NCBI GenBank assembly: GCA_012837965.1
Contig: DUQF01000013.1
Span: 17,360-81,359 of the forward strand
DNA from: Clostridiales bacterium
GTDB lineage: Bacteria; Bacillota; Clostridia; Christensenellales; Aristaeellaceae
Length of the DNA stretch: 64,000 nucleotides
Direction of reading: 5' to 3'
Both the position numbers and the translations under genes were made by a program. Below, in pieces: positions 18,004 through 31,232 of this stretch (its first letter is position 1; each line of letters begins with the position of its first letter). The notes under the pieces are model-generated. The model made no database searches. It had not been told where the DNA came from and saw nothing but the letters and a program-made list of their open reading frames with translations.

Positions 18004-19833
18004 TTAAAATCCATTTTCCTTGTTTAATGCATCGATTTCATGCTTACGAAGCGGCGGGTTACAGGATTTACAAGGTGTAAATTGGCTGTAATTCGCATCG
18101 TCTAATTGACCATAGGTAAACTCGCCTTTTAAAGGTAACCAACGGCTCTTAACACCACGACATCTCGCATCGGCATGATAGTTTTTACCGCCAGTGGGAT
18201 TATAATATAGCTTTAAATCATCACTGGGGTAGGCGTGAAAGCGGCCCGGATTATCGTCCCAAACCAGAACCTTAGTATTGACCTTAATATTATTCCACAC
18301 CCAAGCCATGTTAAATCCATCATCGTTGGTTTTGCGCTGGACACGCACACATCCGTGACTTGCTTTAGAACCCAGTAGCCCTTCTTGGGAACTGTAATCT
18401 TTATAGTTGGTTGCCTCGTTAAGAATATAGGGTACTTCATGAATCAGACAACCGCCATTAATACGCATGGCCATGTCGCAGTAAAGGTTACCTGCCCAGA
18501 AGCCGCCTGTACGAGAAATAAGGAGAAATTCTCCAGAGGGGGTTTCATTCCAAGGTTGTTGCTTGGTCGGCAGGCCTGTAGAAATCAACAAAGTAGTGAA
18601 AAGTTTACCTTCCTTAAAAATTAACATTTCTTGGGTTAATTTATCAATCAACATACCAAAATCCGCACGCGGAACAATGGTGTCTAAGCGATTGGTTTCA
18701 ACATAGCCTCGAATCAACTCATCAGAATTGCCCCAGCCGGGCCGGCTTTTGCAATTGGGTCCATAGCTTGAATTAAAAACCTCCACATAAGACCAACCAT
18801 TATCTAATGTTTCTAAGATATTGACACCCTGTGATTCACAGGTGATTTCTCCAAGAACATTGTCATTTTTCATGCTTGTATCGGGCGTTGCCCGCAGACG
18901 ATACATTTCTTTTTGGTCGCCTTTTCGTGTTGCTGCCTTAACAATGGTTATTGGTTGGATCATAACATTCCAAATAGCTTCTTCGTCCATCTTTCCTACA
19001 GGCAAAGTCCAATAGTTGGAGCCCAACTGTTCTTGAGGCACATGCTCTGCGGTGGGGGGTTTATAAGATATGGTTTGCTGTGTTGCTGGTGTGTCAATAA
19101 CATGAGAGGCGTCAAAACCTGTGTCAACCGTTGACCATGATTCTTCAGTTGACTCAACCTGTTCTTGCATTGGCTCGCTTACAGACTCCTGTAGCAAGCC
19201 ATTTGCGTCTCGCATGGTCAAGACAATATGGTGTGGCTGGCTAAAAAAACCAGTTTCATCGCTTAGCTGTACGGAAATCATATGACTGCCGGGCGCTACC
19301 TGCATATTATGATAAAGTCCGTTCCAAGACAGTGTGTTTTCTCCTTGAACGGCTTGTTTTGAAGCAACTGTTTCGATCATTCCGTTGATATTCGCACGGA
19401 ACATTAAAGTTCCCGGCATGTTCACATGGGCTGTAACTGACCATTCCTCCCCCTGTGTTATTTCTGCCGAGCTAATAATCATGGACTGAATGATGGGCGC
19501 TTCTTTACCAATAGTGATAGGGACGCTTTGTTCTGCTGAACTTTGCCTAAAATACAAAACATAGTCCCCGGGAGACATATAACGGTTGTTGTTGTCCATG
19601 CCATTCCAATAAAAAGTATTTGTGCCGACAATAGTAGGAATGCCGGTGAACAAAATCATCTCAATGCCAGAAGACGAAACCAACGCAATTTCGGTTGGAT
19701 CTTCAGTAAAAGACTGAAAAATAATACTCTCGGTTTTTCCGGGACGAATAAAAAGCGGCTGAACTTCAAGTGCGTAGACACTTGAAAATAACAACATGAA
19801 TGAAAATAAGATTGATAATCGTTTTTTTATCAT
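18004..19833 (-). CDS. Secreted L,D-transpeptidase (YkuD domain) with two N-terminal FlgD-Ig-like modules and a Cys-rich C-terminal motif
   Basis: The YkuD catalytic region reads LIHEVPY ... GSKASHGCVRV. The Ig-like modules read NTFYWNGMDNNNRYMSPGDYVLYF and ENTLSWNGLYHNMQVAPGSHMISVQL. Start 19833 has AAGGGGG 6 nt upstream and gives the signal peptide MIKKRLSILFSFMLLFSSVYA. Confidence 0.8.
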   Translation of the reverse strand: MIKKRLSILFSFMLLFSSVYALEVQPLFIRPGKTESIIFQSFTEDPTEIALVSSSGIEMILFTGIPTIVGTNTFYWNGMDNNNRYMSPGDYVLYFRQSSAEQSVPITIGKEAPIIQSMIISSAEITQGEEWSVTAHVNMPGTLMFRANINGMIETVASKQAVQGENTLSWNGLYHNMQVAPGSHMISVQLSDETGFFSQPHHIVLTMRDANGLLQESVSEPMQEQVESTEESWSTVDTGFDASHVIDTPATQQTISYKPPTAEHVPQEQLGSNYWTLPVGKMDEEAIWNVMIQPITIVKAATRKGDQKEMYRLRATPDTSMKNDNVLGEITCESQGVNILETLDNGWSYVEVFNSSYGPNCKSRPGWGNSDELIRGYVETNRLDTIVPRADFGMLIDKLTQEMLIFKEGKLFTTLLISTGLPTKQQPWNETPSGEFLLISRTGGFWAGNLYCDMAMRINGGCLIHEVPYILNEATNYKDYSSQEGLLGSKASHGCVRVQRKTNDDGFNMAWVWNNIKVNTKVLVWDDNPGRFHAYPSDDLKLYYNPTGGKNYHADARCRGVKSRWLPLKGEFTYGQLDDANYSQFTPCKSCNPPLRKHEIDALNKENGF

Positions 19834-19904
19834 AAAGTCCCCCTTTGCACAGTCCATGTTAGCATATACCCATGTTTCAATCAAGTAAACTTTATTAACA
19901 AGTT

Positions 19905-19934
19905 ATGACAAAACGCCGCACAATCGTGCGGCGT
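19905..19934 (-). terminator. Rho-independent terminator after yebC
   Basis: The minus strand reads acgccgcac-gatt-gtgcggcgt followed by TTTTGTCAT. Confidence 0.7.
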
Positions 19935-19962
19935 GATAAAATAAACGACATTCAAGAAAAAT

Positions 19963-20709
19963 TTACTCTTCATCCTCTTCTTCCGGTAATTGTGCATCAT
20001 GGTACACTTCAACCACATCGTCATTGTCTTCAAACATATCCAAAAGTTTATGAAACCTTTCAAGCATCTCAGGATCATTGATTTCTTTGGTCATCTGCGG
20101 CAGCTGGGCGCGCTCAGCCGATAAAAAGGAGTATCCTTGAGCTTCAAGAGCTTCACGCACGGAAGAAAAATCGTTGGGTTGGGTGAGAATTTCAAATACA
20201 TCGTCATCTGCTTCAAAGTCCTGAGCGCCAGCTTCCAAGGCGTGCATCATCACCTCGTCTTCATCCATATTGTCGCTACGTTCAATAACAATTACACCTT
20301 TATGCTCAAACAAATAACCAACTGATCCGGTCTGCCCCATACTTCCACCATTTCTGTCAAAGATATGTCGTACGTCGCTTGCTGTGCGATTACGATTATC
20401 TGTCACAACATTAACTATTACAGCAATGCCGCCAGGACCGTAACCTTCATAAGTAATCTCCTCATAAATTACATCCTCAAGCTCTCCAGAAGCCTTTTTG
20501 ATACTTCTTTCGATATTATCATTAGGCATATTATTGGAGCGAGCTTTGGCAATCACATCTCGAAGCCTGCTGTTATGTGTAGGATCGCTACCACCTTCTC
20601 GAACGGCCATGGCTATCTCTCTACCAATTTTAGTAAAAATAGCCCCCTTTGCAGCATCTGCTTTCCCTTTTTTATGCTTAATATTTGACCACTTAGAATG
20701 TCCAGCCAT
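19963..20709 (-). CDS. yebC: YebC/PmpR family DNA-binding transcriptional regulator
   Basis: It has the MAGHSKWSNIKHKKGKADAAKG N-terminus and a family-typical length (248 aa) with an acidic C-terminus. Confidence 0.9.
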   Translation of the reverse strand: MAGHSKWSNIKHKKGKADAAKGAIFTKIGREIAMAVREGGSDPTHNSRLRDVIAKARSNNMPNDNIERSIKKASGELEDVIYEEITYEGYGPGGIAVIVNVVTDNRNRTASDVRHIFDRNGGSMGQTGSVGYLFEHKGVIVIERSDNMDEDEVMMHALEAGAQDFEADDDVFEILTQPNDFSSVREALEAQGYSFLSAERAQLPQMTKEINDPEMLERFHKLLDMFEDNDDVVEVYHDAQLPEEEDEE

Positions 20710-20773
20710 TGTAAATTCCTCCTAAATGTTTCTAAATGTTATTTTATCATATACATAAAACAGCGCTAAATAT

Positions 20774-21544
20774 CTAACCTGCGCCTTTATTTAACTGATT
20801 GAGAACAGAGAGGGCTCTATCAGGATAATTGGTAATTAAACGATCAACACCTTTAAGAATTAAGGATTTCATCGCTTGATCTTCATTAACAGTCCAGGTA
20901 TTTACTTGCAGGCAATTAGTATGCGCTTGAGCAACCGTATCTTCAATTAAAAGAAGTTCATGATATTCAGGATGAATGGCATCAACACCCAATGTCTTGG
21001 CGTACTTCCAAGGCTCAACCATAGTGTGAGCATACAGTAATCCACAGTAGGCTTTTGGCTGCAGATTCTTCAAAGCAACCATACTGTGGTGGTTAAATGA
21101 AGAAAAGAGTACTCTTTCTTCCATTCCCAAAAGCGCAACACACTCAAGGCACTTTTCTTCAAGTATTGGGTTGGCTGTCCGGCTGTTTTTTAGTTCAATA
21201 TTGATATGCATGTTCGTGTCTTTTACAAATTCAAGTATCTCTTGGAGAGTTGAAAGCTTGGCATTAGCATATTCAGGATGGGTTCGATTGAATTTGAGTT
21301 TTTTTAATTCAGAATAGCGCATATCAGCTATACGACCAATCCCGTTTGATACCCTGTCAATACGCTCATCGTGGCATACAACCAAAAGGTTGTCTCTGGT
21401 AAGTTGTACATCAATTTCGATACCGTGAGCACCCAAATTATTGGCTAATTCAATAGCTTCAATGGTATTTTCAGGTGCATAGCCTGATGCACCCCTGTGA
21501 GCAAAAACCTGTGTATTCATATTTATCCCCAAAGTATTTTTCAC
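20774..21544 (-). CDS. Glycerophosphodiester phosphodiesterase (GDPD family), cytoplasmic type
   Basis: It has the VFAHRGASGYAPENTIEAI ... HGIEIDVQLTRDNLLVVCHD motifs and no signal peptide. The GTG start at 21544 has AAGGAG 6 nt upstream and overlaps the upstream stop (TAGTG). Confidence 0.85.
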   Translation of the reverse strand: MKNTLGINMNTQVFAHRGASGYAPENTIEAIELANNLGAHGIEIDVQLTRDNLLVVCHDERIDRVSNGIGRIADMRYSELKKLKFNRTHPEYANAKLSTLQEILEFVKDTNMHINIELKNSRTANPILEEKCLECVALLGMEERVLFSSFNHHSMVALKNLQPKAYCGLLYAHTMVEPWKYAKTLGVDAIHPEYHELLLIEDTVAQAHTNCLQVNTWTVNEDQAMKSLILKGVDRLITNYPDRALSVLNQLNKGAG

Positions 21545-22587
21545 TACTGACTCCTTGCTTTTTCTCTTCGAGCAAGGGCACTGTCAAGAACAACACCCAA
21601 AAAGCCTAAAATAATCATTAAGTAATATGTGTAAAAACGCCAAACCAACATGGCGGGAAAAATTAAAGATTCAGGAAAAAAAGAACCTAGGAAAACATAA
21701 AATCCCCCCTCTTGTGCTCCAGAAGCGCCTGGCAGCGGAGTGAAACTGGCCGCTATGTATAACATCACTTGCATAGTGAAAACTTCGATATACTTGGCAT
21801 TATTAAGTCCAAAACCACGATAAATAAAGTAAACAGTGCTGAGTAAAGCAAAAACTTGGAATATCGAAAGCAAAAGTAATACTAAAAACTGAAAAGGATG
21901 ACGAGAAATAAGCTGCACACTGGCTTGGAAATCTTGGATTCCAGCATCCCATTTAGAAATCGACTTTGCCTTATCTTTAATGATACGAAGCACATACAAT
22001 ATATGCACTATAAAAGCGATAATGGAACGAACAATGTTTTGGTTAATAGATAACAATAGGACAATCACAATTACCAAACCATTGACAAAAAATCCAAGGC
22101 CTAAAAACCAAATGCCAACGTGCATTCTTTCAGCAATAAAGGATGGATAACGAAACCAAAGTACGGTGCCGACGAGCAATAAAGCACACTGCCAGCAAAA
22201 GAATTTAACCGTGTAAGCAGACAATGAAGTGCCAGGCGCAATACCCCGACAACGCATGGCATGCACCTGCATTGGTTGACCGCCGGTTGCGGCCGGAGTG
22301 ATGGATGAATAGTACACACCAATTAGTCCGACGAGGTAGTTATCCCTCATCTTAGTTTTGATTTTTTGAAAATAATAATATAGATAGCAAATAAAGGCTT
22401 CCAAAAATAAGTGAACAAAAATACATACAAGGGCACCCGTCATCCATAACTTTCTGGAAGTGGCGACCACTGATTTGACTTCAGAAAGGTCACCTGATTG
22501 AAGGGCAAGGTACAATATCACAAAAAATGGGCCGACAACTATAAGGGCTGTAAAAATTCGTTTGGGTAAAATTTTTCTGCTTTTCAT
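21544..22587 (-). CDS. Flippase-like membrane protein (lysylphosphatidylglycerol synthase TM-region / UPF0104 family)
   Basis: 347 aa, about 8 TM helices, with the family-typical SSITPAATGGQPMQV loop. An ATGA overlap joins it to the upstream gene. Confidence 0.65.
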   Translation of the reverse strand: MKSRKILPKRIFTALIVVGPFFVILYLALQSGDLSEVKSVVATSRKLWMTGALVCIFVHLFLEAFICYLYYYFQKIKTKMRDNYLVGLIGVYYSSITPAATGGQPMQVHAMRCRGIAPGTSLSAYTVKFFCWQCALLLVGTVLWFRYPSFIAERMHVGIWFLGLGFFVNGLVIVIVLLLSINQNIVRSIIAFIVHILYVLRIIKDKAKSISKWDAGIQDFQASVQLISRHPFQFLVLLLLSIFQVFALLSTVYFIYRGFGLNNAKYIEVFTMQVMLYIAASFTPLPGASGAQEGGFYVFLGSFFPESLIFPAMLVWRFYTYYLMIILGFLGVVLDSALARREKARSQ

Positions 22588-23390
22588 GAACGCCTACTTT
22601 CTATGAAAAAATCTTTTCTGGAAAAAGCAAAGCTGGAAACAAAAACAAGTAAAAACCCGAATGTCGCAGCAATAAGGGACATGATCATAGGTAAGTTGTT
22701 GCCAATTACTACCTTGAAAGAATACAGGCTGAATGGTGTAAAATACTTAAGTATCTTGCTGGCGCCGTCTAACCGAGAAAGTCCCTTAATAATTGCCCAC
22801 AGAACAAATAATATATCCAGTAATTTACTAATCTGATCATTGGGAGAAAACACGGCACTAAAAAGATAAAAACCGGTAGGTAAGAAAGAAAAAAGCATAC
22901 TCTGCAATAGGAGAATGTCGATTTGATTAACCGTTTCCCTCCACTGATCAAACACAAGTGGAGCTATACGATATAGTCCGCTGATTAAAACATGTTGACA
23001 CAATACTGAAAATGAAATCGCAACAAATACTGAAAACACAATATTGCTCAACCATTTCTCCGACACAAAAAAGAAACGCGCTTTCTGCCTTTCCATCATC
23101 TGGACATACAGTCTCTTGATACTTAAGCGGATAAAAATCATATTGATTAGAGGGACAACAAAAGCGAACAAAAGCGACGTGAAATAATCCTGCGGATTAA
23201 TTGCCGCATCAATTCCCACAAACCTTGAAAGGGAAGGATTGCTTAGACGCCAAGCTTCAACACCCCGCGGAACACCTTCCACAGGAAGTCGATAGGTAGC
23301 GAAAACTCCCAACACAAAAAGCATACTAATTGCAAGAAAGGGTATCACATAAATTTTGAGCCTTTGCATACGATACTTTATGACACTCAT
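22584..23390 (-). CDS. ABC-2-type permease-like membrane protein
   Basis: 268 aa. An N-terminal TM helix is followed by a loop and five further hydrophobic segments. It is translationally coupled to the NBD-like gene upstream. No specific family was recognised. Confidence 0.45.
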   Translation of the reverse strand: MSVIKYRMQRLKIYVIPFLAISMLFVLGVFATYRLPVEGVPRGVEAWRLSNPSLSRFVGIDAAINPQDYFTSLLFAFVVPLINMIFIRLSIKRLYVQMMERQKARFFFVSEKWLSNIVFSVFVAISFSVLCQHVLISGLYRIAPLVFDQWRETVNQIDILLLQSMLFSFLPTGFYLFSAVFSPNDQISKLLDILFVLWAIIKGLSRLDGASKILKYFTPFSLYSFKVVIGNNLPMIMSLIAATFGFLLVFVSSFAFSRKDFFIESRRS

Positions 23391-24280
23391 TCTTCAATGC
23401 TCTCCTCTGCCCTTACTTCCTCGTATATCCAAGCATCATGATAACCGCCAATAAAATCAAGCACTTTGTAATCTTTAAGTATGTTAAGCAAAACATTCGG
23501 GCTACCGGATAGCTTTAAAGTAACTCGATCATAATTGATGGTTAACTTCTTATCCCATACCTTAGCAAAAGCATCGGCCTCATCAGCTTTTTCAAATACA
23601 ATATGATAGATTTTTTCTCTCGCTAATTGCATTTCGGTGTCCTTAAGTTCAGTGATTGCCTCCCCATCCATACATAAAATCACACGATCACAAATAAGAC
23701 TAAAATAATCAAAGCTGTCCTGCAAAATAAGCACGGTTTTCCCATTTTTTTTAAAAGAAAGTAGCAAATGTATCACATGAGAACGTTCGGCATTATTAAG
23801 GCAGGTAAAAGGCGATAGAAGAACATAGGCCTTGCTTTCTTCACATAACGCAAGAAGGAGGGCTAATTTTTTCCTGTTTTTTTCTCCCAAGGTACGAAAC
23901 AATCCAATAAGGTTTAAATCAAGTTTTTGCACAAGGGAACTAAAAAGCTCTTTATTATGTCGCTGATGCATTTTTTGATAAAGCTTAATAAAATCAGCAA
24001 TCTTTTCATCTGGTGAAAAAGCATCTTCAAATACTTGAAAAGAAACGGTTGACCAAAGCTCTTTTCGTTGACTGCGGCAATTTTTTTCAAAAAAAAGAAC
24101 TTGACCATCATCAGGCTTATAAAGTCCCTGTAAAAGAGAAAGGACACGCTCATGCATAAAGCTATCAGCGGAGAGAATACCCAGGGTTTCTCCTTGTTCC
24201 ACCACGAAAGATAAATTGTTTATGGCGCCAAACCCATCTCCATGCATGGAAACATCCTTAAATTTAAACAATGCCATCAT
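23387..24280 (-). CDS. ABC-transporter ATPase-like protein with all catalytic motifs degenerate (pseudo-NBD)
   Basis: The NBD fold is recognisable (LFKFKDVSMHG ... FVVEQGETLGIL ... LLQGLYKPDDGQVLF). The Walker A position reads SADSFMHER, the signature reads LGEKNRKK, the Walker B reads YVLLSPF and the H-loop reads LQDSFD. Confidence 0.65.
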   Translation of the reverse strand: MMALFKFKDVSMHGDGFGAINNLSFVVEQGETLGILSADSFMHERVLSLLQGLYKPDDGQVLFFEKNCRSQRKELWSTVSFQVFEDAFSPDEKIADFIKLYQKMHQRHNKELFSSLVQKLDLNLIGLFRTLGEKNRKKLALLLALCEESKAYVLLSPFTCLNNAERSHVIHLLLSFKKNGKTVLILQDSFDYFSLICDRVILCMDGEAITELKDTEMQLAREKIYHIVFEKADEADAFAKVWDKKLTINYDRVTLKLSGSPNVLLNILKDYKVLDFIGGYHDAWIYEEVRAEESIEE

Positions 24281-24392
24281 TCCTCCTTCTGTGATTATAC
24301 CAAAATATTAGGTATGGGGACAAGCCACTTGGAATCAAACCTAAAAAAAGTAGTAACGGTGTGGCAAAAGCGGCAAAAGCCCTACCTTTACC

Positions 24393-24421
24393 TTGACGCT
24401 TGAAGATAAAAAATGTATAAT
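24393..24421 (+). promoter_or_regulatory. SigA-type promoter of the PFOR gene
   Basis: TTGACG (24393-24398), a 17-nt spacer ending in TG, then TATAAT (24416-24421). An AGGAGG ribosome-binding site lies before the ATG at 24494. Confidence 0.7.
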
Positions 24422-24493
24422 TATTTTTGTATTGAAGGCTATGAGCTGCAAGATATATTTTGCAGCCACACGCTATGTTTATAGGAGGTTACA

Positions 24494-27400
24494 ATGGCTA
24501 AAAAATTTACCGTAGACGGTAATGGGGCAGCAACGCACGTTGCTTACGCGTTTAGTGACGTATCGGCAATCTATCCCATCACACCGTCTTCCAACATGGC
24601 CCAATACTCTGATGAGTGGGCTGCCCAGGGTCGAAAAAATATTTTCGGCCAGACCGTCAAGGTGCAGGAGATGCAGTCTGAAGCTGGTGCCGCAGGTGCC
24701 GTTCATGGTTCATTAGCGGCTGGCGCACTGACCACTACGTTCACCGCTTCTCAGGGACTTCTGCTCATGATACCTAACATGTACAAAATCGCCGGTGAGC
24801 TTCTCCCTTGCGTTTTCCATGTAAGTGCTCGTACCTTAGCAACCCATGCCTTGTCCATTTTTGGTGATCATAGTGACGTAATGGCTTGCCGTCAGACCGG
24901 TTTTGCTATGCTCGCTTCTTCAAGCGTGCAGGAAGCCCAAGACATTGCTCTGGTAGCTCATCTGGCTTCTATTGAGTCATCTGTTCCTTTCCTACACTTC
25001 TTTGATGGTTTCCGTACCAGCCATGAAGTTCAAAAGATTGATAAGATTGAATATGAAGAGATGGCAAAGTTAACCAACTTCGAAAAAATTGAAGCTTTCC
25101 GTGCCCGCGCCCTTAATCCGGAGAAGCCGCACCAGGCTGGTACTGCACAGAACCCAGACGTTTTCTTCCAAAACCGTGAGGCAGCCAACAAGTATTATGA
25201 CGCTGTTCCCGACATCGTAGAAGAACAGATGAGGAAAGTATCCGAACTAACCGGCCGTAAGATTAATTTGTTTGACTACTATGGCGCCGAAAACGCCGAA
25301 AACGTTATAATCCTGATGGGTTCCGGCGCTCAGGCAGTGTACGAAACTGTTGATGTACTCAACAAAGAAGGCAAGCGTTATGGCTGCGTAAATGTGCACC
25401 TATATCGCCCTTTCAGTGTCGAGAAGTTTGTAGACGTTTTACCTGCTACCGTTAAGACCATCACTGTGCTTGACCGCACCAAGGAATCCGGTTCCATCGG
25501 CGACCCCCTGTACCTTGATGTTTGCACTGCGCTTCGTGAGGGTGGTAAGGGCGATATCCGCGTATTGGCTGGCCGCTATGGACTTGGTTCTAAGGAATTC
25601 AACCCCACTATGGTTAAAGCCGTTTTCGATAACGCCGATAAGGAAGATGCAAAGCATCACTTTACTGTTGGTATTAACGACGACGTGACCCATTCTTCTC
25701 TGGGGCTTGGTGAAACTCTTGATGCCGCTCCTGAAGGAACTGTTAGCTGCTTGTTCTACGGCTTTGGTTCTGACGGTACCGTCGGCGCAAACAAGAATTC
25801 CGTCAAAATCATTGGCGATCATACCGACATGTATGCCCAAGCATACTTTGCCTATGACTCCAAGAAATCAGGTGGTTTGACTGTTTCGCATTTACGTTTT
25901 GGTAAATCCCCTATTCGTTCTACCTACCAGATTGACTCTGCCAACTTCGTCGCTTGCCACAAGCCCTCATATGTCACCGCATATGATATGGTTAAGCCGC
26001 TGAAAAAGAATGGTGTCTTCCTGCTCAATTGCCCCTGGTCTGCCGAAGAGCTTGACTCCCATCTGCCCGCCTCCATGAAGCGTGCCCTTGCTAAAAAGAA
26101 TGCCAAGTTATATACCATTGATGCTACCGATCTGGCCGCACAAGTCGGCATGGGCAACCGTATTAATACCATCATGCAGGCCGCTTTCTTTAAACTGGCG
26201 GATATCATCCCTTATGAAGATGCTGACCGCTACATGAAAGAAGCCGCGCAAAGGAGCTACGGTCGTAGAGGTGATAAAGTTGTTAAGATGAACTGGGATG
26301 CCATTGATATTGCTATCTCGGGTCTCAAAAAGGTAGAAGTGCCCGCTTCCTGGGCGGATGCCACCACCGGTGGAGAGCCCCCACATGTTGAAGCGACGGA
26401 CTACTTCAATTCCACCATCAAACCGGTGCTAAATCAGGCTGGTGACGATCTGCCCGTGTCCGCTTTCTCCCCCGATGGCTTTGTGCCCACTGCCACTACC
26501 CAGTATGAAAAACGTGGTATTGCTGTCAACGTACCTGAATGGCTGATTGACAACTGTATCCAATGTAATCAGTGTGCATTGGTTTGCCCCCATGCGGCTA
26601 TCCGTCCGTTCTTGATTAAGGAAGGCACTGAAAAACCTGCCTCCTTTGAAACCAAGAAAGCCACCGGTAAAGAGTTTGAAGGTTACGAGTTCCGTATCCA
26701 AGTCAGCACCCTTGACTGCGCGGGCTGCGGTAGCTGTGCTCAAGTATGTCCTTCCAAGGTAAAGTCTTTGGTCATGAAGCCTCTGGAAAGTCAGCAAATA
26801 CAGGAAGCCAACTGGGACTTTGCAGCAAAGCTGCCTGAGCTTGACATCCCTGTCAACAAAAATACTGTTAAGGGAAGCCAGTTCTTAAAGCCCCTGTTTG
26901 AGTTTTCTGGAGCCTGCCCGGGCTGCGGCGAAACACCCTATGTTAAACTTGTTACCCAGCTGTTTGGTGATCGCATGATTATTGCCAACGCCACCGGATG
27001 CTCCTCTATCTATGGTGGTTCTTCGCCCACTGTTCCCTACACCGTTAACGATAAGGGCCATGGACCTGCTTGGGCTAACAGCCTGTTTGAAGACAATGCC
27101 GAGTTTGGCTTTGGTATTAGCCTTGCTTTCACCCAGCGTCGTGAACTGATTGCCGAAAAGGTTACCAAGCTCATCGGTCTTGGCTACACGGTAGGCGAAC
27201 TTAAAGAAGCCGGCCAGGAATGGCTAGACAACATGAACGAAGGCGAGGCTTCCAAGGTTGTTTCCGCCAAGTTTGTTAAAAAGCTTGAATGCGGTATCGT
27301 CGAAGGTTGCCCATGTGAAGCTTGCCAGCTTGCCCGTGAAGTTCTCGAACAGAAAGACCTGCTCGTCAAGAAGTCCATCTGGATCTTCGGCGGCGACGGT

Positions 27401-28504: not shown

Positions 28505-29500
28505 TTTAACTTGTCAATCTTTTTAAGCCATTGAATGGTATCCTTAATCGTTTCTTCAAAAGAGCGGTAGGTTTGTCCAAGCATACGCTCTGCTTTTTCG
28601 TCGGAAAAATTGGAGTTACTATTAAGCGTATAGATCGAATATCTTGTAACGACCGGCTTTTTACGTGAAATTTTATCTTTAATAAAATAATATGGTAAGG
28701 CAAAGTAAGCTAAAAAGGTCGGTAAAATCGGCACAGGCTTTTTTCTTTTTCTATCAATGGCCTTATCAATGGCCTCAAAAAATTCCCTAATTGTAACGTA
28801 ACGTCCAGGTATGAGATACTGTCCACGAAATTTTTGATCGGTTGCCAATCGATACAACCCGTCAACCAAATCACGAACATCAACAAAACTATATCCACCC
28901 TGGACGCCAACGGACAACTTACCACTTGCGTATTGGGCTAACATCGCTTCTTGGCTGCTCAACTGATAGCCGCCAGGACCAATAATGCCGCTTGGAAAAA
29001 CCATACAGGCATTTAGTCCCTCATTGACAATAGCGTCAATTACAAGCTTAGAAGCTTCAGCCTTGGTTTTAGCGTATCCCCCTGTAACGAGCTTTGCGGA
29101 AAAACCGGTCTGCTCCTTGATTTGCTCGCCTCTTGGAGCTTCAGGCAGAGCATGTACGGAACTAATATAGATAAGCCGCATATTGTTTGAAACGCAGGCG
29201 TCAACAATATTTTTGGTACCGCCAACATTAATTTTTTTCAACCTGTTTGTCCTTTCTCCAGCGAAGGCTGATGAGCCCGGCACAGTGGATGACCGTCGCA
29301 TCTTCCCATCCATGGAGAAAGAGTTGTATGGATAAAGGATCGGTTATATCGCCTTTTACCGTTTGAACCTCGATTGGTAAATGTTTAAATAGTTGATCAT
29401 CGCTTAGTACCAAGGCTCTAATCTGATATCCCGCTTCAACCAACCTTTGTACAAGCACCATACCAAGATGGCCTGTTGCACCAGTAACTAAAAACCTCAT
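28501..29500 (-). pseudogene. NAD-dependent epimerase/dehydratase (extended SDR, dihydroflavonol-reductase-like) gene split by a +1 frameshift in an A7 run
   Basis: The N-terminal part reads MRFLVTGATGHLG ... VIHCAGLISLRWRKDKQVEKN, then stops. The C-terminal part (INVGGTKNIVDAC ... SSVHAL ... YAKTKAEAS) is in another frame. Removing one base from the T7 run at 29232-29238 gives VEKINVGGT and a ~332-aa ORF. Confidence 0.7.
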
Positions 29501-29609
29501 GATGCCTCCTTGTTGTTTATCCATAGAAAAAGATAGAGTACCTAGAAAAACCATGCTTTGTATTGCTCAAATTATAAATGAACGATTTTTAAGCGTCAAG
29601 AAAAGCTTC

Positions 29610-29643
29610 TGCTAAAACAAAAATGCGCAGCCTAGCCGCGCAT
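29610..29643 (-). terminator. Rho-independent terminator of the sugar ABC operon
   Basis: The minus strand reads ATGCGCGGC-TAG-GCTGCGCAT (9-bp stem) followed by TTTTTGTTTT. Confidence 0.75.
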
Positions 29644-29660
29644 AAATAGTATCAGAAAAT

Positions 29661-31232
29661 TTACCCCTTAACACCGCCTGAGGTAAGACCAGAAACCAAA
29701 TGCTTTTCGATGAGCATAAATAAAACGATTACCGGCAAGGTTGCAAGCAAAGCTGCCGCAAACAAATAGTGCCATTCAATCATATTAAAGGAACTGAATT
29801 GCGTAATGCCGACGGTAATAGGCTTTTTGGTTGGTGTAGCGATCAAAACAGTTGAAATGGTATATTCATTCCACGAGTTGATAAACACGAAAATGAGAGT
29901 TGTAACAATACCAGGCGCTGCCATAGGAAGCAGAATGCGCAGAAGAGCGCCTACAGTTGAAGTACCGTCTATACACGCCGCCTGTTCCATTTCAGAAGAA
30001 ATGGATATAAATGTGCCCCGCAAAAGCCAAATAGCAAACGCTTGGTTGAAGGCGGCGTTAATAAAAATTAAACCAAGAATGGTATTATTTAATTTAAGAG
30101 TAGTCATCAGCTGAGAAATGCCAACTAAAAGAACAACCGGAGCAAACATTTGACTCATGATAACAAACCCAAGGTAAGCCTTTTTGCCCTTAAAATCCAT
30201 TCGAGCCATTGCATAAGCAGCAGGAATCCCACAAAGCATAGCAATTAACGTAGCGCCAGCAGAAAGAACCGCAGAGTTAAGTAAATATTGCGGTACACCG
30301 CGATTAAGAATATCAGTCATGTTGCTCCATATCCATTTTGTTGGGAAAATATACCTAAAGCGCATATCGTTGGCTTCTACCGGAGTACGAAAACCTGTGA
30401 TAAACATAACAAAGTATGGATATAAAATAACAACACAGAGTACAATAACAGCTACATATTTAAAGCCTGTTAATAAGGCAGCCGCTATTTCGCCTTGATA
30501 TAGCTTAATGAGACCTATTAAGTTCAGGAAAAAGATAGCAAAAAGCATCCATAGGAAACCGGTTGCCTGAAAGCTTAGTCCTTTGAAAGCGGAAATCGGG
30601 TCTTGCTCCTGCGTAAAAAGAAAGTCCATGCCTTGTTGAACAACGGGGGCGTCCAAAGCATTGTCATCTAACAAGAAAGGAATATTTCGATTAAATGTGT
30701 AGTTTGCATGCATCGCAAAAACGGGAATAAGCAGTAATGCAATTAAGGACAAAACACACGCAATAAGGAGCCTTCGATCTTTCACATGATATGCATGCTT
30801 ATCTTGAATTTTCTGACCTGATTGATAGCTCAAAACCGCAAACAAGCTTGCAAGCACTATGGAACCAAAGGCAATTAACAAAATGTGACCTGATAACAAG
30901 CCCGACTTCATCCAACTCCATCCGTTACGGGTAAACTTGACACCCACTTCAAAGGCAACCATTGTTGTTGTCTCACCCTTTGAGTTAGTGCGATGGGTTA
31001 CTGTTTCGTTCAGTTTGGCATCTTCACCAAAGGGGAGCATCGCATCTTGTGCTAAAGCCTTAGCTTCGATATATTTTTCACTATCGACAGGAGTATTTGC
31101 ATGCCTTTTAGAATACACTATCTGCCGGAAGGAATAAACTGGCAAGGAAAGTAAAATAATAGACAATAATAGCGAAAGAAAGACGAGCAACAACCAGCGG
31201 TGCTTATTCCTGATTTTTTGTTTCTTAGTCAT
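29661..31232 (-). CDS. Carbohydrate ABC transporter permease (MalG/BPD type) with a ~250-aa N-terminal membrane extension
   Basis: The C-terminal ~275 aa form a typical sugar permease (EAA-like region SSEMEQAACIDGTSTVGALLRILLPMAAPG). The N-terminus adds extra TM helices and a loop. The ATG at 31232 has GGAAGGAGG upstream and an ATGA overlap with the preceding gene. Confidence 0.75.
   Translation of the reverse strand: MTKKQKIRNKHRWLLLVFLSLLLSIILLSLPVYSFRQIVYSKRHANTPVDSEKYIEAKALAQDAMLPFGEDAKLNETVTHRTNSKGETTTMVAFEVGVKFTRNGWSWMKSGLLSGHILLIAFGSIVLASLFAVLSYQSGQKIQDKHAYHVKDRRLLIACVLSLIALLLIPVFAMHANYTFNRNIPFLLDDNALDAPVVQQGMDFLFTQEQDPISAFKGLSFQATGFLWMLFAIFFLNLIGLIKLYQGEIAAALLTGFKYVAVIVLCVVILYPYFVMFITGFRTPVEANDMRFRYIFPTKWIWSNMTDILNRGVPQYLLNSAVLSAGATLIAMLCGIPAAYAMARMDFKGKKAYLGFVIMSQMFAPVVLLVGISQLMTTLKLNNTILGLIFINAAFNQAFAIWLLRGTFISISSEMEQAACIDGTSTVGALLRILLPMAAPGIVTTLIFVFINSWNEYTISTVLIATPTKKPITVGITQFSSFNMIEWHYLFAAALLATLPVIVLFMLIEKHLVSGLTSGGVKG

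Follow-up and report, generated by a model that had tools for sequence, protein, structure and literature searches.

We examined four overlapping minus-strand genes, here termed A to D, in a 64,000-nucleotide stretch (hereafter, the window) of contig DUQF01000013.1 from a Clostridiales bacterium, the first of which encodes an ATP-binding cassette (ABC) nucleotide-binding domain (NBD) without the motifs that would allow it to handle nucleotide. We consider it probable, if some way from certain, that A (297 aa; 23387..24280) acts as the non-catalytic partner in a type V ABC-like complex with the product of the adjoining gene B (268 aa; 22584..23390), and that its motor died in an ancestor common to the window species and a sister species. 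The two genes downstream, C (347 aa; 21544..22587) and D (256 aa; 20774..21544), encode a stand-alone MprF-type flippase-like domain protein and a cytoplasmic UgpQ-like glycerophosphodiester phosphodiesterase (GDPD), respectively. A preliminary description of this DNA read all four genes as a single, possibly ATP-independent system that handles the head groups of lipids or teichoic acids, built around a structural or regulatory pseudo-NBD. The catalytically dead and yet maintained pseudo-NBD withstands closer analysis; the dedicated four-gene system does not.

The loss of catalytic motifs from A is comprehensive. Motif positions were taken from a phmmer alignment to CbiO (PDB 3gfo), together with alignment to orthologues of A and to canonical paralogues. 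Where Walker A canonically reads GGNGVGKST (GxxGxGK[ST]), A reads SADSFMHER, with the lysine replaced by histidine and all three glycines gone; the Q-loop, canonically VFQD, has become VFED, with glutamate in place of glutamine at the position aligned to 3gfo; the signature, LSGGQ in general and MSKGMKQK in this subfamily, is represented by LGEKNRKK; Walker B (hhhhDE, LDEP) reads VLLSPF, in which Asp-Glu has given way to Ser-Pro; and aspartate (LILQDSF) occupies the position of the switch histidine. The Walker A, signature, Walker B and switch readings of the preliminary description are thus reproduced exactly, in the 3gfo and family alignments alike. A shifted alignment as the cause of the apparent motif loss was considered and rejected, as three independent alignments agree and in none of them is Walker A or Walker B intact. 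Judged by these residues, canonical ATP binding or hydrolysis by A would be impossible, and A presumably does not bind ATP.

The scaffold of an NBD is retained, as had also been proposed, and on this point profiles, alignments and predicted structure concur. Against PF00005, A scores 17.9 bits and so does not reach the Pfam gathering threshold (25 bits), compared with 46.9 bits for its orthologue in a congeneric genome (G008), while NCBIfam models of PmtA-, NodI- and DrrA-type NBDs match residues 8-220 of A with E-values of 1e-15 to 1e-11, PmtA being the best. The AlphaFold 2 (AF2) model of A has a mean predicted local distance difference test score (pLDDT) of 84, exceeding 90 across most of residues 1-200, and includes both the RecA-like core and the helical subdomain. 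When searched with Foldseek it returned 1230 PDB matches at E<=0.001, and 50 of the 50 listed are ABC NBDs. Rv1218c superposes on the model with a root-mean-square deviation of 2.4 A over 211 residues (template modelling score TMt 0.88), and the other best structural matches are TM_1403, NosF (including its C-terminal domain) and the NBD-R modules of ABCA transporters. The C-terminal, regulatory-type domain of A (residues 221-279) carries 16 of the 37 invariant columns, and is the most conserved part common to the live and dead forms of the protein.

That a dead NBD is being preserved, rather than caught in the course of decay, is evident from comparison of the window genome (G000; 2.03 Mb, 97.6% complete) with that of its sister species (G003). 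Records related to the window genome are Christensenellales and Clostridia metagenome-assembled genomes, several of them from anaerobic digesters. Both species are uncultured Clostridia of gut or digester habitats, and accessions that carry the window species include GCA_046128195.1, ERZ4240871, ERR12982444 and SRR20986778. The two A proteins are 67% identical, at a synonymous divergence (dS) of about 1.7. As synonymous sites are near saturation, dN/dS estimates by NG86 and YN00 were unusable, and were replaced by our own counting of the proportions of nonsynonymous and synonymous sites that differ (pN and pS), with bootstrapping. For A, pN is 0.21 and pS 0.67, yielding a pN/pS of 0.31 (bootstrap range 0.26-0.38; maximum 0.44 in 1000 replicates), compared with 0.17-0.22 for pairs of active A orthologues at similar pS. 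The corresponding values for B (0.34 in the dead pair versus 0.41 in relatives) and C (0.21 versus 0.22-0.24) reveal unchanged constraint. The sister species shares the dead motifs, with LGEKNR and VLLSPFTCL identical in both, and the former P-loop has diverged between them (SADSFMHER versus SSDSQFTHH); pN/pS in that segment is 0.50. Across NCBI, ENA, JGI and Logan assemblies A is 99-100% identical, its commonest variant occurring on 27 contigs; gene order is identical in four independent assemblies, and full-length variants from independent assemblies contain neither internal stops nor frameshifts. The recurrence of the same allele in independent assemblies from four sources leads us to reject an assembly artefact, and the pN/pS values lead us to reject a pseudogene. 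A is clearly under purifying selection and is not a decaying gene, in its sister species or here, and therefore probably has a structural or regulatory role, much as the preliminary description supposed.

The wider phylogenetic distribution places this loss within a family that already lacks the canonical signature. Orthologues of A were recovered by pattern scan and scored in 47 Christensenellales species, with one genome per species. Of the 46 orthologues readable at Walker A, 45 retain its Gly-Lys pair; of all 47, 42 retain the Walker B D[DE], 32 the switch histidine and none the subfamily signature S-x-G. Full motif loss is limited, in this set, to the window species and its sister. When 1.84 billion representative proteins were searched with a profile, only one 50%-identity cluster among the examined matches of approximately 290-340 aa had dead Walker motifs. 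In the wider NBD subfamily, three further proteins (P0022, P0091 and P0082) have an intact Walker A together with substitution of the Walker B glutamate by lysine or glutamine (VLDKPF, LLDQPF), and of the switch histidine by aspartate or glutamate, which suggests that this subfamily may drift repeatedly toward non-hydrolytic forms. The window genome also encodes a canonical paralogous pair (contig C16:129755-131367), comprising a 271-aa NBD with an intact P-loop (GPNGAGKTT) and a 266-aa permease, the genes of which overlap by 4 nt.

Within the genus, an orthologue of A is present in all 11 other genomes and, on every contig long enough to show it, is followed by a B whose start overlaps the stop of A. 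Window A is 25-31% identical to these orthologues, which are 50-84% identical among themselves; the equivalent ranges for C are 50-56% and 60-84%, and window B is 20-28% identical to its orthologues. In a maximum likelihood (ML) tree of A, the stem branch leading to the window and sister species measures 1.88 substitutions per site, equal to 3.7 times the depth spanned by the remaining genus members. In ML trees of B and C the same stem amounts to 0.94 and 1.36 times the corresponding depth, and the tips are ordinary. A long stem on A combined with ordinary tips points to a burst of change in A, followed by stabilization.

The partner of A is identified by predicted fold. No ABC-2 membrane model matches B at E<=1 in Pfam or NCBIfam, no PDB sequence matches it at E<=10, and its sole Pfam match (Abhydrolase_9_N, E 0.031) falls below the cut-off, at chance level. 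The AF2 model, built with 13 orthologues (pLDDT 78, predicted template modelling score 0.79), is a six-helix transmembrane domain (TMD) with a long loop between TM1 and TM2 and short re-entrant helices before TM6. Its top Foldseek matches are NosY, PmtD, Rv1217c and ABCG2/5/8, with TM-scores of 0.5-0.66 and probabilities of 0.97-1.0; for NosY, PmtD, Rv1217c and ABCG2 the TM-scores are 0.56-0.66. On the strength of this model B is an ABC-2 (type V) permease, in keeping with the six-helix permease-like product first described; and as A and B match subunits of the same solved complexes, they resemble the two subunits of type V exporters. B directly follows A, with an overlapping stop and start, at 12 of 12 orthologous loci where B was called. 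A word-indexed homologue search with B retrieved only B itself and its counterpart in the sister species and is uninformative on distribution, which was instead taken from whole-genome searches and a scan with a degenerate pattern.

The history of the four-gene block can be read from its relatives. Across Christensenellales the near-universal order is an AI-2E transporter gene, A, B, and a GH65 phosphorylase gene, with overlapping genes; the GH65 enzyme is maltose-phosphorylase-like (PDB 1h54 at 4e-264), and ClpB lies divergently upstream in both of the distant loci that were annotated. Within the genus, GH65 is followed by a YhcH/DUF386 gene, then C, then a gene encoding a secreted CHAP/Big_2 protein. 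Nine other genus genomes display the order AI-2E-A-B-GH65-YhcH-C, or the visible parts of it, and the contigs of a further two run out within GH65 or shortly beyond it. The sister species is the only other one in which A, B and C are adjacent, and there the CHAP/Big_2 gene sits between C and D. In loci from beyond the genus, A-B is accompanied by AI-2E and GH65, and neither C nor D is present. Orthologues of AI-2E and of the maltose phosphorylase were not found in the genomes of the window or sister species; YhcH is also missing from both, and the CHAP gene is missing from the window genome. The loss of these ancestral neighbours coincides with the loss of ATPase motifs. The uninterrupted A-B-C-D block occurs only in the window species, so that the four genes do not stay together either across the genus or beyond it, and the earlier proposal of a dedicated four-gene system is not borne out. 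Given the synteny in relatives, and the pairing of D with yebC described below, the block consists instead of three modules (A-B, C, and D-yebC) that were united by deletions.

The ancestral-type cluster warrants description in its own right. A translationally coupled arrangement of AI-2E transporter, signature-less NBD, ABC-2-like permease and GH65 enzyme occurs in about 45 Christensenellales species (L028-L073; for example, L029:1364-6450 and L065:7830-12897). At one of these loci, in a complete-looking genome, GH65 survives downstream of A-B as a 359-aa remnant comprising a partial catalytic domain and the C-terminal domain (L069:10656-11735); the maltose phosphorylase partner seems to have been partly lost here in an independent event.

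The assignments of C and D made in the preliminary description are upheld by profile searches. C matches PF03706 at 4e-35 (122 bits; cut-off 33.4) over model positions 5-302 of 302, and TIGR00374 at 4e-21. In a Pfam search of all 347 residues PF03706 was the sole domain found, and as the C-terminal aminoacyl-phosphatidylglycerol (PG) synthase domain is lacking, C is a stand-alone flippase-like protein and not an MprF. A sequence search with C against the PDB returned no match. Orthologues (50-56% identical) are present in all 10 genus genomes with contigs that reach far enough. D matches PF03009 at 5e-49 (168 bits; cut-off 23.6), and PDB 2pz0 over its full length at 5e-51. In the alignment to 2pz0 the active-site segments AHRG (HRG), PENT (ENT), E-x-DVQ and HDE are kept. 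D has no signal peptide, and scores 142 bits against the Escherichia coli UgpQ equivalog, under the cut-off of 264. By these sequence features D is an ordinary cytoplasmic GDPD.

The constant companion of D is a yebC/TACO1-family gene (19963..20709, minus strand), which begins 64 nt downstream of it; D is immediately upstream of yebC in 10 of 10 genus genomes checked. Five genomes (G000, G003, G001, G004 and G007) have the D-yebC pair downstream of C, and the other five carry it on a contig other than that of A-B. In three of the latter (G008, G006 and G002) the A-B-C contig runs several kilobases past C without D-yebC, and in two (G005 and G010) the A-B contig does not extend beyond the point at which adjacency with D-yebC could show.

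In the window, the coordinates of the open reading frames (ORFs) bear out the reported overlap of all four genes, the junction sequences being ATGA at A/B, ATGA at B/C and TAGTG at C/D. The start codon of A (ATG) is preceded at 5 nt by GGAGG. That of D is a GTG with a Shine-Dalgarno sequence (AAGGAG) 6 nt upstream, which is better than that available to a possible alternative start, an ATG 8 codons downstream. A consensus scan predicted a promoter-like site upstream of A (24294..24323, minus strand), consisting of TTGTCC, an 18-nt spacer and a TG-extended TATAAT; it matches 10 of 12 consensus positions in addition to the extended TG, and is divergent from the promoter of PFOR (nifJ). A terminator scan detected no terminator-like site between D and yebC, and a hairpin resembling an intrinsic terminator (9-bp stem with 7 G-C pairs, followed by a T-run) lies after yebC at 19913..19934 on the minus strand. 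An Rfam scan of positions 19800-24600 found no RNA element. On account of the promoter-like site before A, the uninterrupted junction of D and yebC, and the hairpin beyond, A-B-C-D-yebC is a likely transcription unit, of which yebC is probably the last gene; the four genes, or five counting yebC, probably share a transcript and couple their translation.

Further along, an exported YkuD-type L,D-transpeptidase is encoded downstream of yebC (window 18004-19884), and is syntenic in the sister species (L013:261-2138) and in other assemblies. The order PFOR / A-B-C-(CHAP)-D-yebC-YkuD is stable inside the two-species clade. Near PFOR, at about 28900-29900 of the window, is an SDR epimerase/dehydratase, for which other assemblies of the same species (L074/L075:779-1777) contain an intact 332-aa ORF.

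We propose the following sequence of events. Against the background of a family whose NBD lacks a canonical ABC signature throughout, the common ancestor of the window and sister species would have lost the AI-2E gene upstream of A, and the maltose phosphorylase and YhcH genes downstream of B. A burst of change may then have removed Walker A, Walker B, the Q-loop glutamine and the switch histidine from the NBD, after which the dead domain would have been kept by purifying selection. Most likely, A persists in the cytoplasm as a non-catalytic subunit by which permease B is held or regulated, and the well-conserved C-terminal domain of A could keep it dimeric, by analogy with the dimer-holding C-terminal domains of NosF, ABCA and MalK-type proteins. 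The deletion of GH65 and YhcH would also have set A-B directly upstream of C in the same ancestor, and the CHAP gene would later have been lost from the window species alone, bringing C next to GDPD-yebC. Several points weigh against this account. The binding of A to B, and the inability of A to bind nucleotide even non-canonically, are matters that we infer from sequence and predicted fold. The Foldseek E-values for B are weak (0.03-0.3, and 0.03-0.1 for the top matches) despite the high probabilities. Relative to active orthologues, A is under constraint relaxed by about 1.5-1.8-fold, such that function may be slowly being lost. Lastly, B and C are tightly coupled by ATGA in two species, which might reflect a newly acquired functional link.

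A rival proposal, that of the preliminary description, takes A-B-C-D as a single ATP-independent unit devoted to the head groups of lipids or teichoic acids, in which the dead pair works with the flippase and the GDPD. The overlap of all four genes behind one promoter-like site is as such a proposal would predict, as is the persistence of A-B-C adjacency, with overlapping stops and starts, in two species separated by a dS of about 1.7. C and D might plausibly both act on molecules derived from glycerophospholipids, and the ATPase motifs were lost as the new adjacency arose. Set against this, the block exists in the window species alone, CHAP/Big_2 intervening between C and D in its sister, and in the other scorable members of the genus GH65 and YhcH stand between B and C. 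D travels with yebC in every genome checked and is away from C in at least three, and the partners of A-B beyond the genus are AI-2E and GH65, with C and D never among them. In the dead lineage B and C are as constrained as elsewhere, and there is therefore no sign of new co-adaptation. We regard a dedicated module as unlikely. Equally doubtful is the related notion that the A-B pair has turned into an energy-independent membrane device, be it a facilitator, a scramblase or a scaffold, recruited alongside C and, in the window species, also alongside the GDPD; if true, it would represent a natural ABC-2 transporter working without ATP in the turnover of membrane lipids or their head groups.

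A might otherwise be a relic in the process of being lost, its frame still open either because little time has passed or because it is needed for translational coupling to B-C-D. The weaker constraint on A (0.31 versus 0.17-0.22), the divergence of the former P-loop between the two species and the disappearance of the flanking partner genes would all accord with this, but neither copy has acquired a stop or frameshift despite near-saturated synonymous divergence (pS 0.67), and the full-length variants in other assemblies are just as intact. Moreover, pN/pS fell below 0.45 in 1000 of 1000 bootstraps, and maintenance of a reading frame alone would not constrain amino acids. The degenerate signature and Walker B remnants are also identical in both species; a relic is accordingly improbable. 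More remote still is the idea that B remains ATP-driven through an active NBD supplied in trans, for instance by the C16 paralogue, acting alone or as a heterodimer with A. The genome does encode a canonical NBD of the same subfamily, and heterodimeric exporters in which one site is degenerate are well documented (PMC7756269; PMC12038006), but the C16 paralogue has a translationally coupled permease of its own, and selection on A would be unexpected had A simply been replaced. From the ATP-sandwich architecture, each composite site of a heterodimer between A and an active NBD would miss one half, as A lacks both Walker A and signature. A maintained, non-catalytic A in complex with B thus remains the explanation we prefer.

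ABC transporters are defined by the ATP-driven dimerization of their NBDs, which lends interest to a single-gene NBD that is without any nucleotide-handling motif, and yet is conserved beside an equally conserved permease. Together, the canonical paralogue in the same genome, the signature-less family in 47 species and the fully dead form in two constitute a natural series, which might be used to ask what an ABC-2 permease needs its NBD for besides energy, with the C16 pair serving as a natural in-genome control for the dead pair. The same series could be used to ask what role the signature-less family plays beside AI-2E and maltose phosphorylase in Christensenellales, and that conserved cluster may be of more interest than the derived form in the window. 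In practical terms, such work is limited by the organisms being uncultured, and by the restriction of the fully dead form to two species. Neither a completely dead NBD in a bacterial ABC-2 system nor the A-B-C-D combination was found described in keyword searches of open-access text, which are not proof of absence.

Among known systems, the A-B pair most resembles NosFY (7o0y), PmtCD (6xjh) and Rv1217c-Rv1218c (8k1m/8k1o), with which it has in common a two-gene arrangement of NBD and six-helix TMD, translational coupling, and predicted folds that match both subunits of each; the extra C-terminal domain of A is also found in NosF, TM_1403 and ABCA transporters. It departs from these type V exporters in that A is without all five motifs and falls under the ABC_tran threshold, and in that B has no ABC-2 Pfam match. 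The natural replacement of catalytic residues in a retained transporter is familiar from the degenerate sites of TM287/288, BmrCD, TAP and MsRv1273c/72c. In such heterodimeric exporters the one degenerate composite site still binds ATP, its Walker A being intact, and the second site hydrolyses (PMC7756269; PMC12038006), whereas A is encoded by a single NBD gene, presumably forms a homodimer and has lost all motifs including the P-loop lysine, so that no canonical site is left. C is like the MprF flippase domain and stand-alone flippases in matching PF03706 and TIGR00374 over the full length of both models, but unlike MprF it lacks the synthase domain, and no gene for a glycosyltransferase or an aminoacyl-PG synthase lies nearby; against the equivalog model of the GlcN-PG flippase (PMC12713373) it scores only 34 bits, relative to a cut-off of 320. 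D is alike to UgpQ and PDB 2pz0 over its full length, with conserved active-site segments, and differs in nothing notable except its equivalog score. A further comparison is with the orthologous family in Christensenellales, which shares with window A its length, the 4-nt overlap with B and the C-terminal motifs R-x-K-V-Y-H-I-x-F, W and GG, and from which the window lineage is set apart by its lack of Walker A and Walker B, and of AI-2E and GH65 neighbours.

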